DNA of 64,000 bases from an uncultured Candidatus Saccharibacteria bacterium. GTDB lineage: Bacteria > Patescibacteriota > Andersenbacteria > UBA10190. Where the stretch lies: positions 12,401 to 76,400 of the forward strand of contig CAYMOF010000001.1 in assembly GCA_964392095.1 (NCBI GenBank). Direction: 5' to 3'. A program made the translations under genes and the position numbers. The first letter of the stretch is position 1. Each line of letters opens with the position of its first letter. Below the pieces are notes generated by a model that made no database searches, had not been told where the DNA came from, and saw only the letters and a list, made by a program, of their open reading frames with translations. Shown piece after piece: positions 22,253-62,004 of the stretch.

Positions 22253-22762
22253 TCAAGTAAGCGACAAGCTCTTTTTACCCCCCAGGTTGTCTGCTAATCC
22301 CTCTCCAGACAAGAAAGCGAAGCATTCCTCCATCGGTTGTCCATCCGGATGAATTAGAACATTAGGACGAGCATTAAAATCATCAGCTAATCGCCTAACC
22401 ACCTCTTCAGCCGATGAAGCCAACAACACCACCCTGGGCATAGGCCGACAAGCGAGAAAAACATGCAACAGTCTTTCAACCTGACCGGCAAATCCAGGAT
22501 CAACATCATCAAGCAAAATCCCGTCCATGACCTCGGATAATAATGCTATAGACTCCAAGCATTCGTCCAAGTTAGTAACCTGAGCCCAGCACCTACGCCT
22601 ATTCAGCTCTCTGCACCATTCCGCGATCACGCCACTGTCGTCCGTTTCGGTAACTACCAACACCAGCCTTCGCTCATCCCTTGCCCCGTTCATGATCATC
22701 TCCCTCCCTAATGAAAGTACAAGCAAAGCACAAAAACAAGCCCAGTCTTGTCTTTCTGACAA
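22253..22762 (-). CDS. Hypothetical protein with weak CheY-like receiver-fold pattern (no conserved Lys)
   Basis: Alternating beta/alpha pattern RLVLVVTETDD / GILLDDVDP / RVVLLASS suggests a (pseudo)receiver domain. The true start is probably an internal Met (MIMNGARDE...). Opposite strand to its neighbours. Confidence 0.3.
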   Translation of the reverse strand: MSERQDWACFCALLVLSLGREMIMNGARDERRLVLVVTETDDSGVIAEWCRELNRRRCWAQVTNLDECLESIALLSEVMDGILLDDVDPGFAGQVERLLHVFLACRPMPRVVLLASSAEEVVRRLADDFNARPNVLIHPDGQPMEECFAFLSGEGLADNLGGKKSLSLT

Positions 22763-53149: not shown

Positions 53150-53995
53150 TTATTTCTTCTGCCTTAATTCCCTAAGCTTAGATGTTACTAAGAGCAAAGA
53201 TCTAACAATCTTCTCTGTAAACTTACGCGGTCCTTCTATTGGATTCAACTGTCTCTGGCAAGCTACTTTCAACACAAACTCATTGTCAACATTCCTATAT
53301 AAACCCCGCTCGTAACAGCCTCGCCCCCTAGCCTCCATTATCGGCTCTAAACCCTCTTTAATAAACTTGTCTGGCCTCGGCAGAGCCGCCGTCTCCAACA
53401 AAGCTACTCTGTATCCAGCATCAAACAATTCGCTCAAAACCCCCTTCAAAGAGCGCCCCTCGTCATATATTAATGGATGCACTTCCATTAATATATTTAC
53501 TTCATTTGTCCTTTTCAAATAATCCAGGCTTCCCCGCAACACATCCACCTCATAACCTTCTATGTCCATTTTTACAACTATGGGTCCACAAATATCTTGC
53601 TCTTTTATGAAGCTTTCAAGGGTAACATACTCTGTCTTTATTGAATCATCATAAGACTCCGCGGCAATTGCCGTGCTTAAATTCCTTTTCTTTTTATTCA
53701 AATAAAAAAAACCTTTACCGCTCTGGTCAGAAACCGCCTGGGAAAATAAATAAAAATTATCTCGACTGCCCAGAATCCTAGTTATTTTATTTCTGTTATA
53801 ACTGTCCGGCTCCAAAATATAAATCTTAATATCGTCACCATATTTTTTGAACAAGTATCTAGCCTCATAACCATCGCTCGACCCAATTTCTATAACATTC
53901 GTACCAGCTACCACCGCCTCATCCAACATGGCCATAAATATCGGCTCTCTCGGCTCTCTTTTTAAAATCTTAACAAGTTGTCGCGCCTTAATCAT
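53150..53995 (-). CDS. FkbM-family SAM-dependent methyltransferase
   Basis: NVIEIGSSDGYEARYL and VVKMDIEGYEVDVLRGS. Confidence 0.7.
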   Translation of the reverse strand: MIKARQLVKILKREPREPIFMAMLDEAVVAGTNVIEIGSSDGYEARYLFKKYGDDIKIYILEPDSYNRNKITRILGSRDNFYLFSQAVSDQSGKGFFYLNKKKRNLSTAIAAESYDDSIKTEYVTLESFIKEQDICGPIVVKMDIEGYEVDVLRGSLDYLKRTNEVNILMEVHPLIYDEGRSLKGVLSELFDAGYRVALLETAALPRPDKFIKEGLEPIMEARGRGCYERGLYRNVDNEFVLKVACQRQLNPIEGPRKFTEKIVRSLLLVTSKLRELRQKK

Positions 53996-54585
53996 CTAAC
54001 AAATCTTTTTAAAACACTCTTCAGCCACGCCCCCAGTCTCCCCTTGGCTCTGATCCTGTTTTCTAAATACTCGCTCTGATCCGTTTCCATTTTGGGAGTC
54101 TGCCAGTCTCCGTATTGATACTCTAAATACTCTTCCGGCGACGACGGACATTCATACCAGCTCCCCCGAAACAAAATCTTCCCCGTATTATTAAAAAACT
54201 TAATCGGATAACGCCAGTTCCTCCTTTTTCTGAATCTGCTCTTCTCCTCATATCCTAATAAAGAATATTTCGTTCCATACTTATGAACATTAATCTTCAT
54301 GTTGCCCTTATCGATCACTATCGACCCCGGCCTAAAACCTGAATTTCTCAACCCTTCTTTTATTGCCTCGAATTTTTCCTGCATCTGCTCCGCGTACAAA
54401 GCCAGCTCCACATCCCAGTCCCACTTAATAAAATCTTTTTCTCTCACCGCCCCCAACAAAACCCCGTCAATCAACAAAAATTTTACCCCCAAGCCATCCA
54501 ACACCCTTTTTATTTGAACCAAACCTTCATTGCGATTTTCCAACTCCTCTTTAGAAAATATTTTTAGCTTTTTATCCAACTTCAT
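53992..54585 (-). CDS. LicD-family phosphotransferase (phosphocholine/alditol-phosphate transferase family)
   Basis: KFLLIDGVLLGAVREKDFIKWDWDVELAL matches the LicD motif (LLGAVRH.GFIPWDDDIDV). Confidence 0.75.
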   Translation of the reverse strand: MKLDKKLKIFSKEELENRNEGLVQIKRVLDGLGVKFLLIDGVLLGAVREKDFIKWDWDVELALYAEQMQEKFEAIKEGLRNSGFRPGSIVIDKGNMKINVHKYGTKYSLLGYEEKSRFRKRRNWRYPIKFFNNTGKILFRGSWYECPSSPEEYLEYQYGDWQTPKMETDQSEYLENRIRAKGRLGAWLKSVLKRFVR

Positions 54586-54604
54586 ATTTTATCTTAATAT
54601 CAAA

Positions 54605-54724
54605 GCTAGTTCTTTTGGCGAATTAGAGGTCCTTTTCGGCCTGGTCCCACGCTCAGCGTGGACGAAAAGGGCCAAAGCCTCGGAGCTACCGCTGGGGCAA
54701 CGAGAATGAGCCAAAAGAACTAGC
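54605..54724. repeat. 120-bp GC-rich palindromic element. Perfect 15-bp terminal inverted repeats enclose nested hairpins. Candidate structured RNA or MITE-like element.
   Basis: GCTAGTTCTTTTGGC (54605-54619) is the exact reverse complement of GCCAAAAGAACTAGC (54710-54724). Inner stems are 54631-54638/54663-54670 (CCTTTTCG/CGAAAAGG) and 54647-54652/54656-54661 (CCACGC/GCGTGG). Confidence 0.4.
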
Positions 54725-54746
54725 CTTGATAATCCAAAACATAAAC

Positions 54747-55568
54747 TCACCATTTCCCCTTATAAAATAATCTCTGAAAAGGCACCGGAATAAAATGCTT
54801 CGGCGCCATCCCTAAATGCTTTACTTTTTCTTTCGGTAAATATTTCTTCCATAATTCCAACTTATCATAAAAGCACTTTAGCCTCTTATACCTCATATCA
54901 GACCATTTGTGCTGAAACGGCTTGCCGATAATCAGATAATATATAGGGCCTTTATAGTGCAATATATGGCATTCCTCACCCCACGGCTCATAATGCCGCG
55001 CTCTATTTAACTCACCCACATAAAAACCCTTAAACCTCACTCCATATTTAGTAAACGGCTTCGTATAATCCTCTCCCTCAACCAATGACATAAACGCGTG
55101 TTGATCAGTACCTCCTTTATCAACAATTTCCATAGTCTTTTCTTTGTACTTCCTGAAAAAATCCCTTACCGCCCGATTATTCCTACACAACATCACCCCG
55201 CTGTTTAACCACTCTTTCGGCACATGTGACAAATATCGGTAAGTAAAACCTATATCATAATCTCCAAAATACTGATCGACGGGCTTTAAAATCAGTGTAT
55301 CCGCGTCCATAAACAACACCCAATCTCCCTCAGCCTTCTCCAGACCCATCTCCCAGCAAGGTAGTTTCAAGCTTCCTGGATGGGGATGCGAATCCATCTT
55401 TTCCCGCAAAATAACATCTTCAATGGGAATATCCTTGCCTACCACAATAGGCTTAATGCCCGGATAAACCCGCCTGATGCTTTCTTTTAAAGCTTCCAAA
55501 AACAAGTCAACCTTGCTCCCAAAAGCCGCCACCACTATGTCTAAACCATTTTTTTTAATATTGGTCAT
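54747..55568 (-). CDS. GT8-like nucleotide-diphospho-sugar (GT-A) glycosyltransferase
   Basis: FMDADTLIL (DXD) and WLNSGVMLCRNN (GT8 motif resembling F.NSGVLLIN). Confidence 0.5.
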   Translation of the reverse strand: MTNIKKNGLDIVVAAFGSKVDLFLEALKESIRRVYPGIKPIVVGKDIPIEDVILREKMDSHPHPGSLKLPCWEMGLEKAEGDWVLFMDADTLILKPVDQYFGDYDIGFTYRYLSHVPKEWLNSGVMLCRNNRAVRDFFRKYKEKTMEIVDKGGTDQHAFMSLVEGEDYTKPFTKYGVRFKGFYVGELNRARHYEPWGEECHILHYKGPIYYLIIGKPFQHKWSDMRYKRLKCFYDKLELWKKYLPKEKVKHLGMAPKHFIPVPFQRLFYKGKW

Positions 55569-55577
55569 TGGCCATCA

Positions 55578-55606
55578 TTGACTAGTAGTCATCTGTCCAT
55601 TATACA
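55578..55606 (+). promoter_or_regulatory. Sigma70-type promoter candidate (TTGACT-N17-TATACA) embedded in the 13-bp palindrome TGACTAGTAGTCA
   Basis: TTGACT at 55578-55583, a 17-nt spacer, TATACA at 55601-55606, and GAAGG about 8 nt before the 55678 ATG. The palindrome at 55579-55591 overlaps the -35. Confidence 0.35.
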
Positions 55607-55677
55607 TACAAGGCCTGAACTGCCATAGTCGGCGTCAGGAAAATTCGCACCTTTCACAATTTCTGAAGGCTTTAGTC

Positions 55678-56456
55678 ATGAGTTTCAAGCTCCAAGTTCT
55701 CGGTTCTGGTATCGCTGCTCCTTTTGATAACCGCATGCCTTCCGGATACCTCGTCATCACCGGCAACACAGAGATCTTGCTCGAATGCAATCCATTCACT
55801 ATCGGAGCCCGCCTATCCGCCATTAACATCACCTCAATCTCTGGAATCCTCGTCACCCACGCCCACAACGACCACTCCGGTGGAGAAGTCGCCTTCCTGG
55901 AAGCCTTCCGCACCAGACACAAAATACTCGGAAAGCCGATTCCCCCCTTTACTTTATGCGGCCCCGCCCCAAACCGTTTCTTCAAGACATACCTTAAAAA
56001 ACAACTTCAGTGGCGCTGGCCGGAATTGCCAGAAGAAGATTGTTTTTGGAAAATCCCATCAGAATTGAATCGCTTCTCGCTGGGTGATGCCTGGATAACC
56101 GCCTTTCCTGTCAACCGCGTCCCCGAAATGCCGGCCGTCGGCTACCATATCCAGTATGGAAATCAGTCCTTAGTCTACTGCGGCGATTTTGGCACCACTC
56201 AATTCCAAAACGTCAACACCCTTGGCCAGTGGATCACCGACGCTGACCTGCTCATCCTCGACTGCGGAGCCCCCACTGAATCCCCAGCCACCTGACCATT
56301 GAGCAGGGCCACAAGATCAAACAGCGGTTCCTCGCCCGCAAACTCCTGGCCACCCACATTCCCGCTCACCGCGTAGGAAATGTCCGCGAGCGCATCGCTG
56401 CCCTCAATGACCCAGATGTCATCCTCGCTGAAGATCTCATGGTGCTTGATATCTAA
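55678..56456 (+). pseudogene. MBL-fold metallo-hydrolase, ~60% GC, interrupted by a frameshift near 56280-56293
   Basis: ILVTHAHNDHSGG (HxHxDH) and CGDFG. The ORF stops at 56295, but the C-terminal remainder (HLTIEQGHKIKQRFLARKLLATHIPAHR...MVLDI*) continues in another frame from 56280 to 56456. The shift maps to C-homopolymers (CCCCC at 56270-56274, CCCC at 56282-56285). Confidence 0.6.
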
Positions 56457-56554
56457 ACCAACTTCAGCAACTTCCCGCAACACATAGCACCCTCTTCTAC
56501 CATCCCTAGTTTACCTCGGATGGTTTTTTCTTACCAAACAATACTCGCAAGTTA

Positions 56555-59796: not shown

Positions 59797-62004
59797 TTAA
59801 TAAAACACTCTCTTTCCAGCCCCTACCCTTTTTCTAACCATCTCCTGAATCTCCCTCCGCATAAACCAGTCCGGCAGATCCCTGCCTTCCTGAAAAGCCT
59901 TGCGGGCCTGGGTACCGCTAATCATCTCCACTGTGCCCGCTTCACTCAAACTCACATAAGTTTTCCTTTTAGGATTAAAACCAACCGCCTCAAAGAATAC
60001 CGGCTCAACACCAATATCCCCAACCTTTTCAAATATTTCCTTTGTTTCTCTGGGCTTATAAAAATCTCCTACTCCAGTATGGTCGCGCCCGACAATAAAA
60101 TGGCTACACCCCATATTTTTCCTGCATAAGGCAGTAAATACTGCCTCCCTGGGGCCGGCGTATCTTGAATAAGTGGAAAAGCTTCCTAAAACAGCCCTGC
60201 CTTTAGGATAAGCTCCGTTTTTAATAGCCAGTTCATAGCTTCTCATTATCGGCCCCGTTAACCAGTCACCGCTTTTCTTAGGGCCTATCACCGGGCTCAA
60301 AAATAACCCGCTTGCTCCCGTCCTTTTAAGGGCCGTCAACTGCAAATACTCGTGCGCTCTATGCACCACATTTCTTGTATGAAAACCCACCACTTTACGC
60401 CACCCCTTATGGGTAAATATTTGCCGCGTCTGATGCGGATCCAGCTCATATTTCCGCCAAACAGAATCCCCTTTTTCTATCAATTCCACCTCTCCCGCTA
60501 TAAACATCTCCCCCGATTCCATAAACCTTCTCACTCCCGGATGATCCCGAGACGTTGTCTTAAACCACAGCCTGGCCGCTTCTTCCCGATCACATTCATA
60601 AACTTCGCTAACTTTCAATAAACTATGCTTTTTGCCCTTGCCATCTTTTAGAACAACTCTCATGCCCGGTTTAATTTTTTCAGCTCTTCTTCTATCTACC
60701 TGCAATATAACCGGCATAGTCCAAACGCACCCGTTCAGCAATTTCATATCATATAAAACACTAAACAGCTCGTCTTTAGTCATAAATCCAGAAACCGGTG
60801 AAAATGTGCCTAGAGCGATCTGCTCACAATCCATCAGGTCGGTATCCTCCACTGTCAAGCTCATCAAATCATCTAAATCTTCCTTTGAACCGCTATACAA
60901 ATTTTTCAAAAGTTTTCCCCCGTGAGGCTCCACCAGCATAGACACCGAAGTGGACACTATGAAGCTTTTCGTTTCTCCGACCTCCCTTTCATATTGCTTC
61001 ATTAATCTTATTATCATTTCCGCGCAAGCTACCGGATATCTGCCCACCGCCGTCTCAGCCGCTAACACCAAACCGTCAGCCCCGTCCGCTAAAGTGTTGT
61101 AAATATCATTAACTTCCGCCCTGGTAGGAACAGGCGCTTCCACCATAGATTCCAACAGATTAGTGGCCACGTAAACGCGCCTGTCCAGATTATGACACTC
61201 AGCAATTATTTTTTTCTGCAAACGAGGAAGCAGCTCTATTGAAGCCTCCCGCGACAAATCGCCTCGATCAATCAAGATATCGTTCGCGCTTGCGGCAATC
61301 TGCTTCAAATTTAACAACCCTTCTTCACATTCAATTTTCGCCGTAACCTTAAACCCTTCCCCAACAATTTCTCTCACCTCTTGTATATCTTCAACGCGAT
61401 GAGCAAAAGATAACGCCACGTTGCTTATCCCCAAACCTTTAACCTGCTTCAAAGCCTCTCTGTCTTTATCTGTTAAAGGAGATAACCTTATTTTTCTATC
61501 AACAGAAAGAGCTTTGTTCTGCTCAATTATCCCTTCTTCCAAAACCTTTAAAATCACTTTTTTCTCGTCTTTTACAATAACCCGCAACAAAACTTTTCTA
61601 TAATCAACGGTCACCAGATCCCCAACCCGCAAGCTTCTGCCTACTTCTTCTGGGTAAAAACTGAAATTAGGCCCCGCGGCTATCGCGTTACCCCCACCTT
61701 CTTTTAGATAAACCGTTAACTCCTCCTCCTCTTCCACCCAAATTTTTCTTCCTCCCTGATATCCCGTCCTGGGCTGGGCTCCTTCCGTATCAATACATAT
61801 CGGAACCGCGCTGTGTCTTCTAACCAGCCCCACCAAATTACCTAAATCATAAACATCCGTATGAGACATGTTGATTCTGAACAAATTAACCCCCAGATCC
61901 GTTAAGCTCCTTATTACCTCCGCGTTCATTGACGCCGGTCCCAAGGTGCACCAAACTTCTTTTCCCTTATTAAATTTGGATATTTCTGACATAAACTTCG
62001 TCAA
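59797..62004 (-). CDS. Fusion protein: pyruvate-kinase-like N-terminal domain (A+B domains, catalytic residues conserved) joined to a complete ATP sulfurylase (sulfate adenylyltransferase, Sat type)
   Basis: N-terminal part: TLGPAS..NLFRINMSHTD, IDTEGAQPRTG, KIECEEG, DRGDLS, ATNLLESMVEAPVPTRAEVNDIYNTLADGADGLVLAAETAVGRYP (PK signatures). C-terminal part: PUA-like segment LVEPHGGKLL..., then GFHTRNVVHRAHEYL (QTRNP.HRAHE motif) and IVGRDHTGVGDFY (GRDHAG motif). Confidence 0.75.
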   Translation of the reverse strand: MTKFMSEISKFNKGKEVWCTLGPASMNAEVIRSLTDLGVNLFRINMSHTDVYDLGNLVGLVRRHSAVPICIDTEGAQPRTGYQGGRKIWVEEEEELTVYLKEGGGNAIAAGPNFSFYPEEVGRSLRVGDLVTVDYRKVLLRVIVKDEKKVILKVLEEGIIEQNKALSVDRKIRLSPLTDKDREALKQVKGLGISNVALSFAHRVEDIQEVREIVGEGFKVTAKIECEEGLLNLKQIAASANDILIDRGDLSREASIELLPRLQKKIIAECHNLDRRVYVATNLLESMVEAPVPTRAEVNDIYNTLADGADGLVLAAETAVGRYPVACAEMIIRLMKQYEREVGETKSFIVSTSVSMLVEPHGGKLLKNLYSGSKEDLDDLMSLTVEDTDLMDCEQIALGTFSPVSGFMTKDELFSVLYDMKLLNGCVWTMPVILQVDRRRAEKIKPGMRVVLKDGKGKKHSLLKVSEVYECDREEAARLWFKTTSRDHPGVRRFMESGEMFIAGEVELIEKGDSVWRKYELDPHQTRQIFTHKGWRKVVGFHTRNVVHRAHEYLQLTALKRTGASGLFLSPVIGPKKSGDWLTGPIMRSYELAIKNGAYPKGRAVLGSFSTYSRYAGPREAVFTALCRKNMGCSHFIVGRDHTGVGDFYKPRETKEIFEKVGDIGVEPVFFEAVGFNPKRKTYVSLSEAGTVEMISGTQARKAFQEGRDLPDWFMRREIQEMVRKRVGAGKRVFY

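Follow-up and report, generated by a model that had tools for sequence, protein, structure and literature searches.

ERIC and Correia-type repeats are bacterial miniature inverted-repeat transposable elements (MITEs), palindromic intergenic sequences of 104-157 bp (MITE definition in PMC3184786). Integron attC sites are imperfect palindromes of 57-141 bp between cassette open reading frames (ORFs), and their stem-loops have been described as affecting translation of the downstream cassette (PMC8876359). For mRNA structure, the RNA-unfolding model of translational coupling is reviewed in PMC12548453, with rpmI-rplT (+52 nt) and f1 VII-IX among the long-spacing examples, while ribosome termination structures (RTS) are short, local, statistically defined hairpins with a proposed role in blocking re-initiation (Chemla et al. 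2020, PMC7518266). Here we describe a 134-bp palindromic element in a 64,000-nt stretch of contig CAYMOF010000001.1 from an uncultured Candidatus Saccharibacteria bacterium (hereafter the window). As a preliminary description made from the sequence had placed it, the element lies between the stop codon of a 273-aa gene (here GT, a putative nucleotide-sugar transferase) and the start codon of a LicD-family gene, on the minus strand. It is a candidate structured RNA that is not in Rfam, and by analogy it appears most like a co-transcribed ERIC/Correia-type repeat combined with a coupling-type inhibitory structure.

The perfect 15-bp terminal inverted repeats (TIRs) given in the preliminary description, GCTAGTTCTTTTGGC (54605-54619) and its exact reverse complement at 54710-54724, are present with 90 nt between them, as are an internal stem of CCTTTTCG (54631-54638) with CGAAAAGG (54663-54670) and, inside that stem, the hairpin CCACGC-TCA-GCGTGG (54647-54661). 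The full inverted repeat extends to 22 bp (54598-54619 / 54710-54731), which brings the element to 134 bp including the 90-nt core; its one A/C mismatch on the plus strand is a G.U pair on the minus strand. This repeat ranks first in strength across the window. The GC content, described earlier as far above that of the flanks, is 0.57 at 54600-54699, whereas neighboring 100-nt windows have 0.27-0.37 and the window overall has 0.42. The window contains a single perfect 15-mer inverted repeat within 300 nt; 100 dinucleotide shuffles have 0.04 on average, and 3 of them have at least one. The predicted fold energies are -66.3 kcal/mol (z = -7.1) for the plus strand and -64.9 kcal/mol (z = -6.75) for the minus strand, and none of 200 shuffles reaches the energy of the element. 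The fold z-scores, the rarity of such repeats in shuffles and a homologue in another metagenome (contig L008) place the element beyond chance. No U-tract follows it, in agreement with the preliminary description (the sequence following the outer helix, P1, is UUAAGAUAAAAU), and terminator-like sites were found on neither strand in 53900-55700; an intrinsic terminator was rejected for want of the U-tract.

Relatives of the locus were reached via the flanking proteins, and three related metagenome contigs are informative. On L008 (GT 89% identical) the spacer between GT and LicD is 169 nt long and carries a homologous 142-nt element in the same place and orientation. The L007 junction (GT 79% identical) has no spacer (...AAATAAgATGGGA...), its stop and start codons being 1 nt apart (TAAgATG). 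The third contig, L009 (GT 89% identical), to which L010 is identical, ends about 26 nt past the GT stop. Its spacer start resembles that of the window, with UAU and then a U-run after the GT stop, and it ends ...GAGTTC, where the inner 5' arm begins; the 5' arm of the L009 lineage differs (UAGAGUGUGAGUUC versus UAUCAAGGCUAGUUC). The L009 and L010 contigs both stop at this point, and L010 runs at positions 1776-1786 into Nextera adaptor sequence (CTGTCTCTTAT), which suggests an assembly or library break at the hairpin. More distant LicD loci (L023-L028) have no comparable GT and no such element; a general LicD leader motif was rejected given its absence from these loci and from L007. The element-free L007 junction implies an insertion or a deletion. 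Judging from these sequences, the element was apparently gained in the ancestor of the three sampled lineages, or lost in L007.

The window and L008 provide two complete element sequences, which were compared over 121 aligned positions, leaving out one hairpin that is swapped between them. Ten of the 121 positions (8%) differ. The GT genes of the same two contigs differ at 18.6% of nucleotides, 116 of 273 third codon positions (42%) and 40 of 74 four-fold sites (54%), and the difference in divergence between element and GT is highly significant (Fisher p about 1e-12). Nine of the ten differences in the element fall in predicted stems. On the sense strand all 44 pairs are kept (100% paired in both sequences), with one compensatory change from C-G to U-A and seven one-sided stem changes, every one of them from G.U to a Watson-Crick pair, while the mirrored helices on the antisense strand contain 8 unpaired cells. 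Five G.U pairs were predicted from the window alone, before L008 was seen, and all five are Watson-Crick pairs in L008. Synonymous transitions in GT, polarized with L009, are symmetric (C>T 15, T>C 14, G>A 20, A>G 16), so a sense-strand C-to-U mutation bias does not explain seven of seven changes from G.U to Watson-Crick (p about 0.008) and was rejected as their cause. Because the substitutions keep pairing on the sense strand only, what is conserved is the sense-strand RNA fold. The structure exists, it is under constraint at the nucleotide level, and its substitutions are structure-preserving on that strand only. Beside the element, the last 33 GT codons (54747-54845) differ from L008 at 9 of 33 third positions and 1 of 8 four-fold sites, versus about 40% elsewhere, which could reflect extra constraint or a recombination tract. 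The 5' end of LicD that adjoins the element on the other side is divergent from L008 (10 of 37 residues differ).

Folded in mRNA context (431 nt for the window and 424 nt for L008), the two sequences give one common architecture, the parts of which are listed in Table 1. P1 has 22 pairs, 100% paired in both sequences, with one compensatory change (C-G to U-A) and two one-sided G.U changes; its pair probability in this context averages 0.987, with a minimum of 0.817. Both G.U pairs of P2 are G-C in L008, and the antisense version of this helix has two A.C mismatches. The two mutually exclusive pairings of the P3 domain, P3a and P3c, have free energies within 1.2-1.6 kcal/mol of the minimum, in the window and L008 alike. 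P4 is the swapped hairpin: its position in L008 is taken by an unrelated 25-nt hairpin, CCUC-UC-GGCU-UGUAU-AGCC-UC-GGGG. The weak mini-hairpin between P3 and P1, in which a G.U becomes G-C in L008, was picked once L008 was known.

Table 1. Positions of the two cistrons, the spacer ORF and the predicted parts of the sense-strand RNA.
Feature	Position	Strand	Remarks
Upstream cistron GT, 273-aa putative nucleotide-sugar transferase	54747-55568	-	First gene of the operon
Downstream cistron, 197-aa LicD-family protein	53992-54585	-	
54-aa ORF spanning the spacer	54589-54753	-	ATG overlaps the GT stop (ATGGTGA); TAA 3 nt before the LicD ATG
Whole predicted hairpin	54577-54749	-	From the GT stop codon (54747-54749) to LicD codon 3; encloses all parts
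P0, 5' strand, UUUAUGUUUUG	54735-54745	-	Starts 2 nt past the GT stop codon
P1, 5' arm, sense RNA UAUCAAGGCUAGUUCUUUUGGC	54710-54731	-	Includes the arm 54710-54724 of the preliminary description
P2, possible 4-bp extension, UCUC/GAGG	54702-54705 / 54678-54681	-	P2 region 54678-54705
P2 hairpin, GUUGCC-CCAGC-GGUAGC	54685-54701	-	Loop CCAGC; predicted from the window sense strand alone
P3 domain	54631-54676	-	Two mutually exclusive pairings
P3c, UUUGGCC with GGCCGAA	54670-54676 / 54635-54641	-	U.G becomes C-G in L008
P3a, CCUUUUCG with CGAAAAGG	54663-54670 / 54631-54638	-	Internal stem of the preliminary description; invariant
P4, variable hairpin, UCCACGC-UGA-GCGUGGG	54646-54662	-	Inner hairpin of the preliminary description; basal U.G becomes C-G in L008
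Possible 3-bp mini-hairpin, GGA-CCUCUAA-UUC	54620-54632	-	Weak; between P3 and P1; in the minimum-free-energy fold of L008
P1, 3' arm, GCCAAAAGAACUAGCUUUGAUA	54598-54619	-	Includes the arm 54605-54619 of the preliminary description
P0, 3' strand, UAAAAUAUGAA	54581-54591	-	Contains the LicD start AUG (54583-54585)

At the base of the structure, P0 is predicted to join the start of the spacer to the start of LicD, at pair probabilities that range from 0.95 to 1.0 for the window and from 0.5 to 0.99 for L008. In this helix the LicD AUG pairs with UAU (54741-54743), 4-6 nt past the UGA, at a predicted probability of at least 0.93 in both sequences. The UGA itself pairs weakly with LicD codon 3, which is UUG in the window and UCG in L008 (another change from G.U to G-C). 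The P0 duplex has an energy of -8.7 kcal/mol, compared with -3.3 +/- 1.5 kcal/mol for mononucleotide shuffles (p = 0.005 for the window and 0.06 for L008). This predicted facing of stop and start suggests that the fold could control LicD translation.

The reading that we tentatively prefer, without calling it probable, is that a palindromic, MITE-like element was inserted into a formerly abutting gene pair, is co-transcribed with it, and is kept as a sense-strand RNA that bridges the two cistrons for translational coupling; its insertion origin, the P0 helix and the coupling mechanism are what we infer. The general part of this reading, a MITE-like palindrome between once-adjoining genes that persists as a co-transcribed RNA structure, has the best support, and coupling is the specific mechanism that we favor. 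A lineage-restricted insertion of MITE-like origin would thus separate cistrons that abut in L007. It would be transcribed within a GT-LicD-FkbM-sulfotransferase mRNA and its fold kept by purifying selection, with the uninterrupted P1 (22 bp) closing a branched core of P2, a bistable P3 and a freely replaceable P4. The 161-nt spacer would fold as one hairpin in which P0 sets the GT stop opposite the LicD start. With no ribosome at the end of GT, the LicD AUG would be sequestered in P0. A ribosome terminating at the GT UGA would melt P0 in its stop-proximal half, the very stretch in which the AUG is paired, and the freed start codon would be held adjacent by P1, which together with the core would act as a clamp, so that LicD translation would stay coupled to that of GT across the insertion. 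Coupling via the folded insert would explain selection that keeps the insert folded.

The element has the dimensions of a bacterial MITE (22-bp arms, a 90-nt core that holds no transposase gene, 134 bp in total against an upper limit of about 200-400 bp), and it varies between relatives at the orthologous site, being absent from L007 and present in L008, with a similar spacer start in L009. It is like the ERIC and Correia repeats in its length, its long TIRs, its long RNA stem-loop and its place in a transcribed spacer inside an operon, as well as in this presence and absence between relatives. Flanking TA dinucleotides are possible: TA precedes TCAAGG... and follows ...CTTTGA, the same bases also being readable as part of the palindrome. 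ERIC and Correia repeats change the stability of flanking mRNA (PMC3184786). Unlike them, the element has no sequence similarity to repeats in the collections searched, was seen in one copy, and has no clear target-site duplication or partner transposase; they form one long imperfect hairpin, whereas its core is branched (P2 to P4).

As in the RNA-unfolding structures at the MS2 coat-lysis, f1 VII-IX and E. coli rpmI-rplT junctions (PMC12548453), the start region is paired, though by prediction only, and its partner lies within reach of the upstream-gene ribosome that would displace it. Those cases lack such a clamp, their cistrons being closely spaced or overlapping, whereas here 161 nt separate stop from start and a 134-nt autonomously folded insert, known from sequence alone, joins them. 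We regard it as rather unlikely that the element represents a class of its own among bacterial cis-acting RNAs and is its first example. In such a class an autonomously folding clamp over a long intercistronic insert would hold a stop codon against a sequestered start, ribosomes would re-start across the hairpin base (a prokaryotic analogue of shunt-type re-initiation), and the loops and the P3a/P3c pairings would perhaps respond to a protein or ligand. If the coupling reading is true, it shows how an operon of closely packed genes with coupled translation can accommodate a mobile palindrome: the fold of the insert keeps stop and start together, and selection subsequently maintains that fold. 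The locus would then be a concrete, testable example of how a selfish repeat is domesticated as part of an mRNA, in an uncultured, little-sampled lineage whose genes have no Shine-Dalgarno sites. The practical impact is modest, as just a few metagenomic contigs carry the element and its function is read from two sequences; its value would rise with confirmation of stop-start bridging or of a specific binding partner.

Several points weigh against the coupling reading. The comparison comprises two complete sequences only and one true compensatory pair, and P5, the P2 extension and P3c as the chosen alternative were settled on with L008 already in view. Changes are rarer among unpaired nucleotides (1 in about 33) than in stems (9 in 88), and no simple structural model explains this near-invariant unpaired core. 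P0 is A/U-rich, 9% of the real post-stop/start pairs in the window are equally good, and the cognate pair comes 14th and 4th, each time out of 51; the helix is plausible but of modest specificity, and not established. The insertion origin rests on one outgroup locus, L007, where a deletion is the alternative (the empty site is too diverged to fix the boundaries of the element), and no second copy, transposase or clear target-site duplication was found to back past mobility. Stable structures just past stop codons have also been reported to insulate against re-initiation instead of promoting it (PMC7518266).

The main rival to the coupling reading, which we think unlikely, is a processing or mRNA-stability element: P1 would be cut by RNase III or another nuclease, or would block 3' exonucleases, so that the operon transcript is split and GT and LicD-FkbM-sulfotransferase have different half-lives, an effect reported for co-transcribed ERIC and Correia repeats. 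RNase III processing sites occur in polycistronic mRNAs, e.g., the early mRNA of phage T7, and the element resembles them in its uninterrupted helix of ~22 bp (two turns of double-stranded RNA) between cistrons. P1 exceeds the 20 bp of uninterrupted double-stranded RNA that an RNase III substrate needs, and is free of bulges over its 22 bp in the window and L008 alike, with compensatory and G.U changes preserving it; the element is also internal to the operon, co-oriented with it and very stable (about -65 kcal/mol). MITE-type repeats are often co-transcribed, form long RNA stem-loops and alter mRNA stability (PMC3184786). However, nothing in the sequence indicates cleavage, RNase III sites need no conserved branched core, and this explanation accounts neither for the conservation of unpaired core nucleotides nor for the post-stop/start complementarity. 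It is quite improbable, in our view, that the fold at the GT stop is a translation insulator that blocks scanning or re-initiation and uncouples LicD; LicD would then depend on de novo initiation alone, or be produced at a lower ratio. The element does begin at the stop codon, is extremely stable and, like RTS, spans an intergenic distance of at least 25 nt. With such structures, re-initiation in a synthetic E. coli operon is lower, and they are enriched at spacings of at least 25 nt (PMC7518266); L007, without the element, has a coupling-type junction. Unlike the local RTS hairpins, the element is a 134-nt conserved multi-helix structure whose base includes the next start codon. With the LicD AUG itself predicted to be paired, de novo initiation would be poor and LicD almost silent, yet the downstream genes are tightly overlapped with LicD and depend on it; a simple hairpin would suffice as an insulator, yet the core is conserved.

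That conservation speaks for a regulatory RNA with a specific partner. It could act in cis, binding a protein or ligand with the help of the bistable P3a/P3c, or be a small RNA cut from the operon transcript. The unpaired core is near-invariant (1 in about 33) although divergence at neutral sites is close to saturation, the mutually exclusive P3a and P3c have nearly equal energies in the window and L008 alike, and a replaceable hairpin such as P4 is typical of functional RNA families. We nevertheless give this explanation little credence: the element has no Rfam match even at E up to 10, it is confined to one narrow lineage and missing from L007 and the distant LicD loci, neither a promoter nor a terminator belonging to it was found, and a 22-bp P1 cannot serve as a ligand-dependent switch helix. 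A purely selfish MITE without host function, the copies being similar through recent spread or recombination, is distinctly unlikely. It would fit the 22-bp TIRs, the length of 134 bp, a GC content foreign to the flanks, the absence from the same site in L007 and, if the start is taken at TCAAGG, the flanking TA dinucleotides, and the low third-position divergence at the end of GT (9/33 over its last 33 codons) could be the mark of recombination. Against it, no second copy was found in the 64 kb, the 28 loci or the collections scanned. Two fully read lineages, and probably a third, have the element at one and the same site; 42% of GT third positions differ between the two, which implies age, yet the element is only 8% diverged; its substitutions are non-random with respect to sense-strand pairing, and the adjoining LicD 5' end is divergent (10/37 residues). 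Very improbable is a reading at the DNA level, in which the palindrome would bind a protein, be invertible, serve as a recombination site like attC or have arisen by chance. Phase variation is common in surface-glycan loci, the long inverted repeat lies in such a locus, and the plus strand folds equally well. However, the wobble changes are strand-asymmetric, and chance is excluded by the fold z-scores, the shuffles and the L008 homologue. An inverton was rejected, as there is no promoter-like site in the spacer or the 90-nt core, both assemblies share one orientation and the internal hairpins co-vary as RNA. The element is like attC in being an imperfect palindrome of similar length placed exactly between an ORF stop and the next start. 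An attC site was also rejected, as the arms have no GTTRRRY or RYYYAAC core sites (definition in PMC8876359) on either strand; unlike attC, they have no extrahelical bases, neighboring genes are not separated by similar sites, and no integrase was found among the scanned neighbors.

The preliminary description had offered three identities for the palindrome. As a MITE-like remnant, it has the long TIRs, a length below 200 bp and the absence at the L007 junction, while a second copy was not found and the low divergence argues against neutral junk. A structured leader for LicD agrees with preservation on the sense strand only; the riboswitch-like version of that idea does not hold, with no Rfam match, a 22-bp P1 that is too stable and distant LicD loci that have no element. 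A protein-binding DNA palindrome is disfavored, since it would not tolerate one-strand G.U changes. The description had further held that a lack of other copies together with a lack of conservation in relatives would favor a fortuitous palindrome or simple terminator; no other copies were found, yet the structure is conserved in the orthologous L008 spacer. Among other known classes, a riboswitch, whose aptamer would be conserved in many lineages before functionally related genes and have a short, ligand-stabilized switch helix, was rejected on two full orthologous copies and a partial third in one narrow lineage, with a P1 of 22 bp and about -65 kcal/mol overall. A hammerhead or twister-type ribozyme was rejected for having no core motifs on reading the sequence and no Rfam match, and a retron, bridge RNA or omega RNA because no reverse transcriptase or recombinase gene occurs among the scanned neighbors.

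The searches for known families and further copies proposed at the outset gave no match and no additional copy, respectively. The window has no Rfam match at gathering level, and at E up to 10 the window and L008 give only sub-threshold hairpin matches (8-21 bits versus cut-offs of 30-90); a tRNA/tmRNA scan found none. Pattern search, nhmmer and a covariance model detected no second copy in the 64-kb window, and in 28 fetched related or other loci nhmmer and the covariance model find the two known copies only. The scans of larger collections were exact-match and did not contain even the known homologue L008, so the absence of further matches there is weak evidence. The genome-contig scan gave 6 matches, all unrelated palindromes that share just the searched 11-mer, the strict-arm scan of metagenome contigs gave 0 matches, and a core-pattern scan gave 11 chance matches without recovering L008. 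Five patterns had 0 matches in viral contigs, and blastn against plasmids and phages returned nothing relevant. The palindromes on L003 and L006 have arms of 24-31 bp that share the 11-mer GTTCTTTTGGC and interiors unrelated to the element. Lachnospiraceae and Clostridiales genomes (L001:105-209, L002:3625-3731, L005:675-776) carry arrays of the 21-nt unit CACGGGGACGGTTCTTTTGGC in direct and inverted orientation.

GT, the first gene of the operon, has a single, sub-threshold Pfam match (Nucleotid_trans, E = 5.6e-4, 20.4 bits versus a cut-off of 22) and belongs to a tiny family (2 clusters among 5.8 billion proteins); on the minus strand it is preceded by a promoter-like site (55626-55599). Genes for an FkbM methyltransferase and a sulfotransferase directly follow LicD without gaps; the GT-LicD spacer is 161 nt, while the remaining junctions of the operon are all overlaps or gaps of at most 5 nt. 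A Shine-Dalgarno-like motif occurs at 0 of 51 ORF starts in the window, where leaders are A/T-rich, and accessibility of start sites should therefore matter. The sense strand of minus-strand genes is strongly enriched in G over C (GC skew of about -0.4 on the plus strand). The 54-aa ORF that spans the spacer was rejected as a small-protein gene: an 8-nt length difference shifts its frame in L008, where a stop follows after 35 codons, and nonsynonymous changes between the window and L008 outnumber synonymous ones by 6 to 2 in the shared N-terminal part. Peptides from all six frames of the element, which would also reveal mis-called ORFs on further copies, have no match in the database of 5.8 billion proteins.

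The window is a cell-envelope glycan region that encodes MurJ, polysaccharide flippases, glycosyltransferases, a sulfatase and an ATP-sulfurylase. A single 735-aa ORF at 59797-62004 (minus strand) combines a pyruvate-kinase barrel, PUA_2 and ATP-sulfurylase, an unusual fusion adjacent to sulfatase and sulfotransferase genes. Divergent from the operon, a gene of the metallo-beta-lactamase fold (Lactamase_B_2 / Apyc1-like; 55678-56554, plus strand) is frameshifted near codon 204, and its last 57 residues are in another frame and 82% identical to an intact 260-aa protein of L009. What appears as a GC-rich intergenic region at 56296-56554 is mostly the remainder of this gene, which is either a pseudogene or affected by a sequencing error. 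A 439-nt gap between long ORFs at 22253-22691 has a GC content of 0.50 (window mean 0.42) and no Rfam match, and is overlapped by a 169-aa ORF with a TTG start on the minus strand. Within the FkbM methyltransferase gene, 53465-53496 form a perfect 13-bp palindrome (ATATATTAATGGA / TCCATTAATATAT) with a 6-nt loop.

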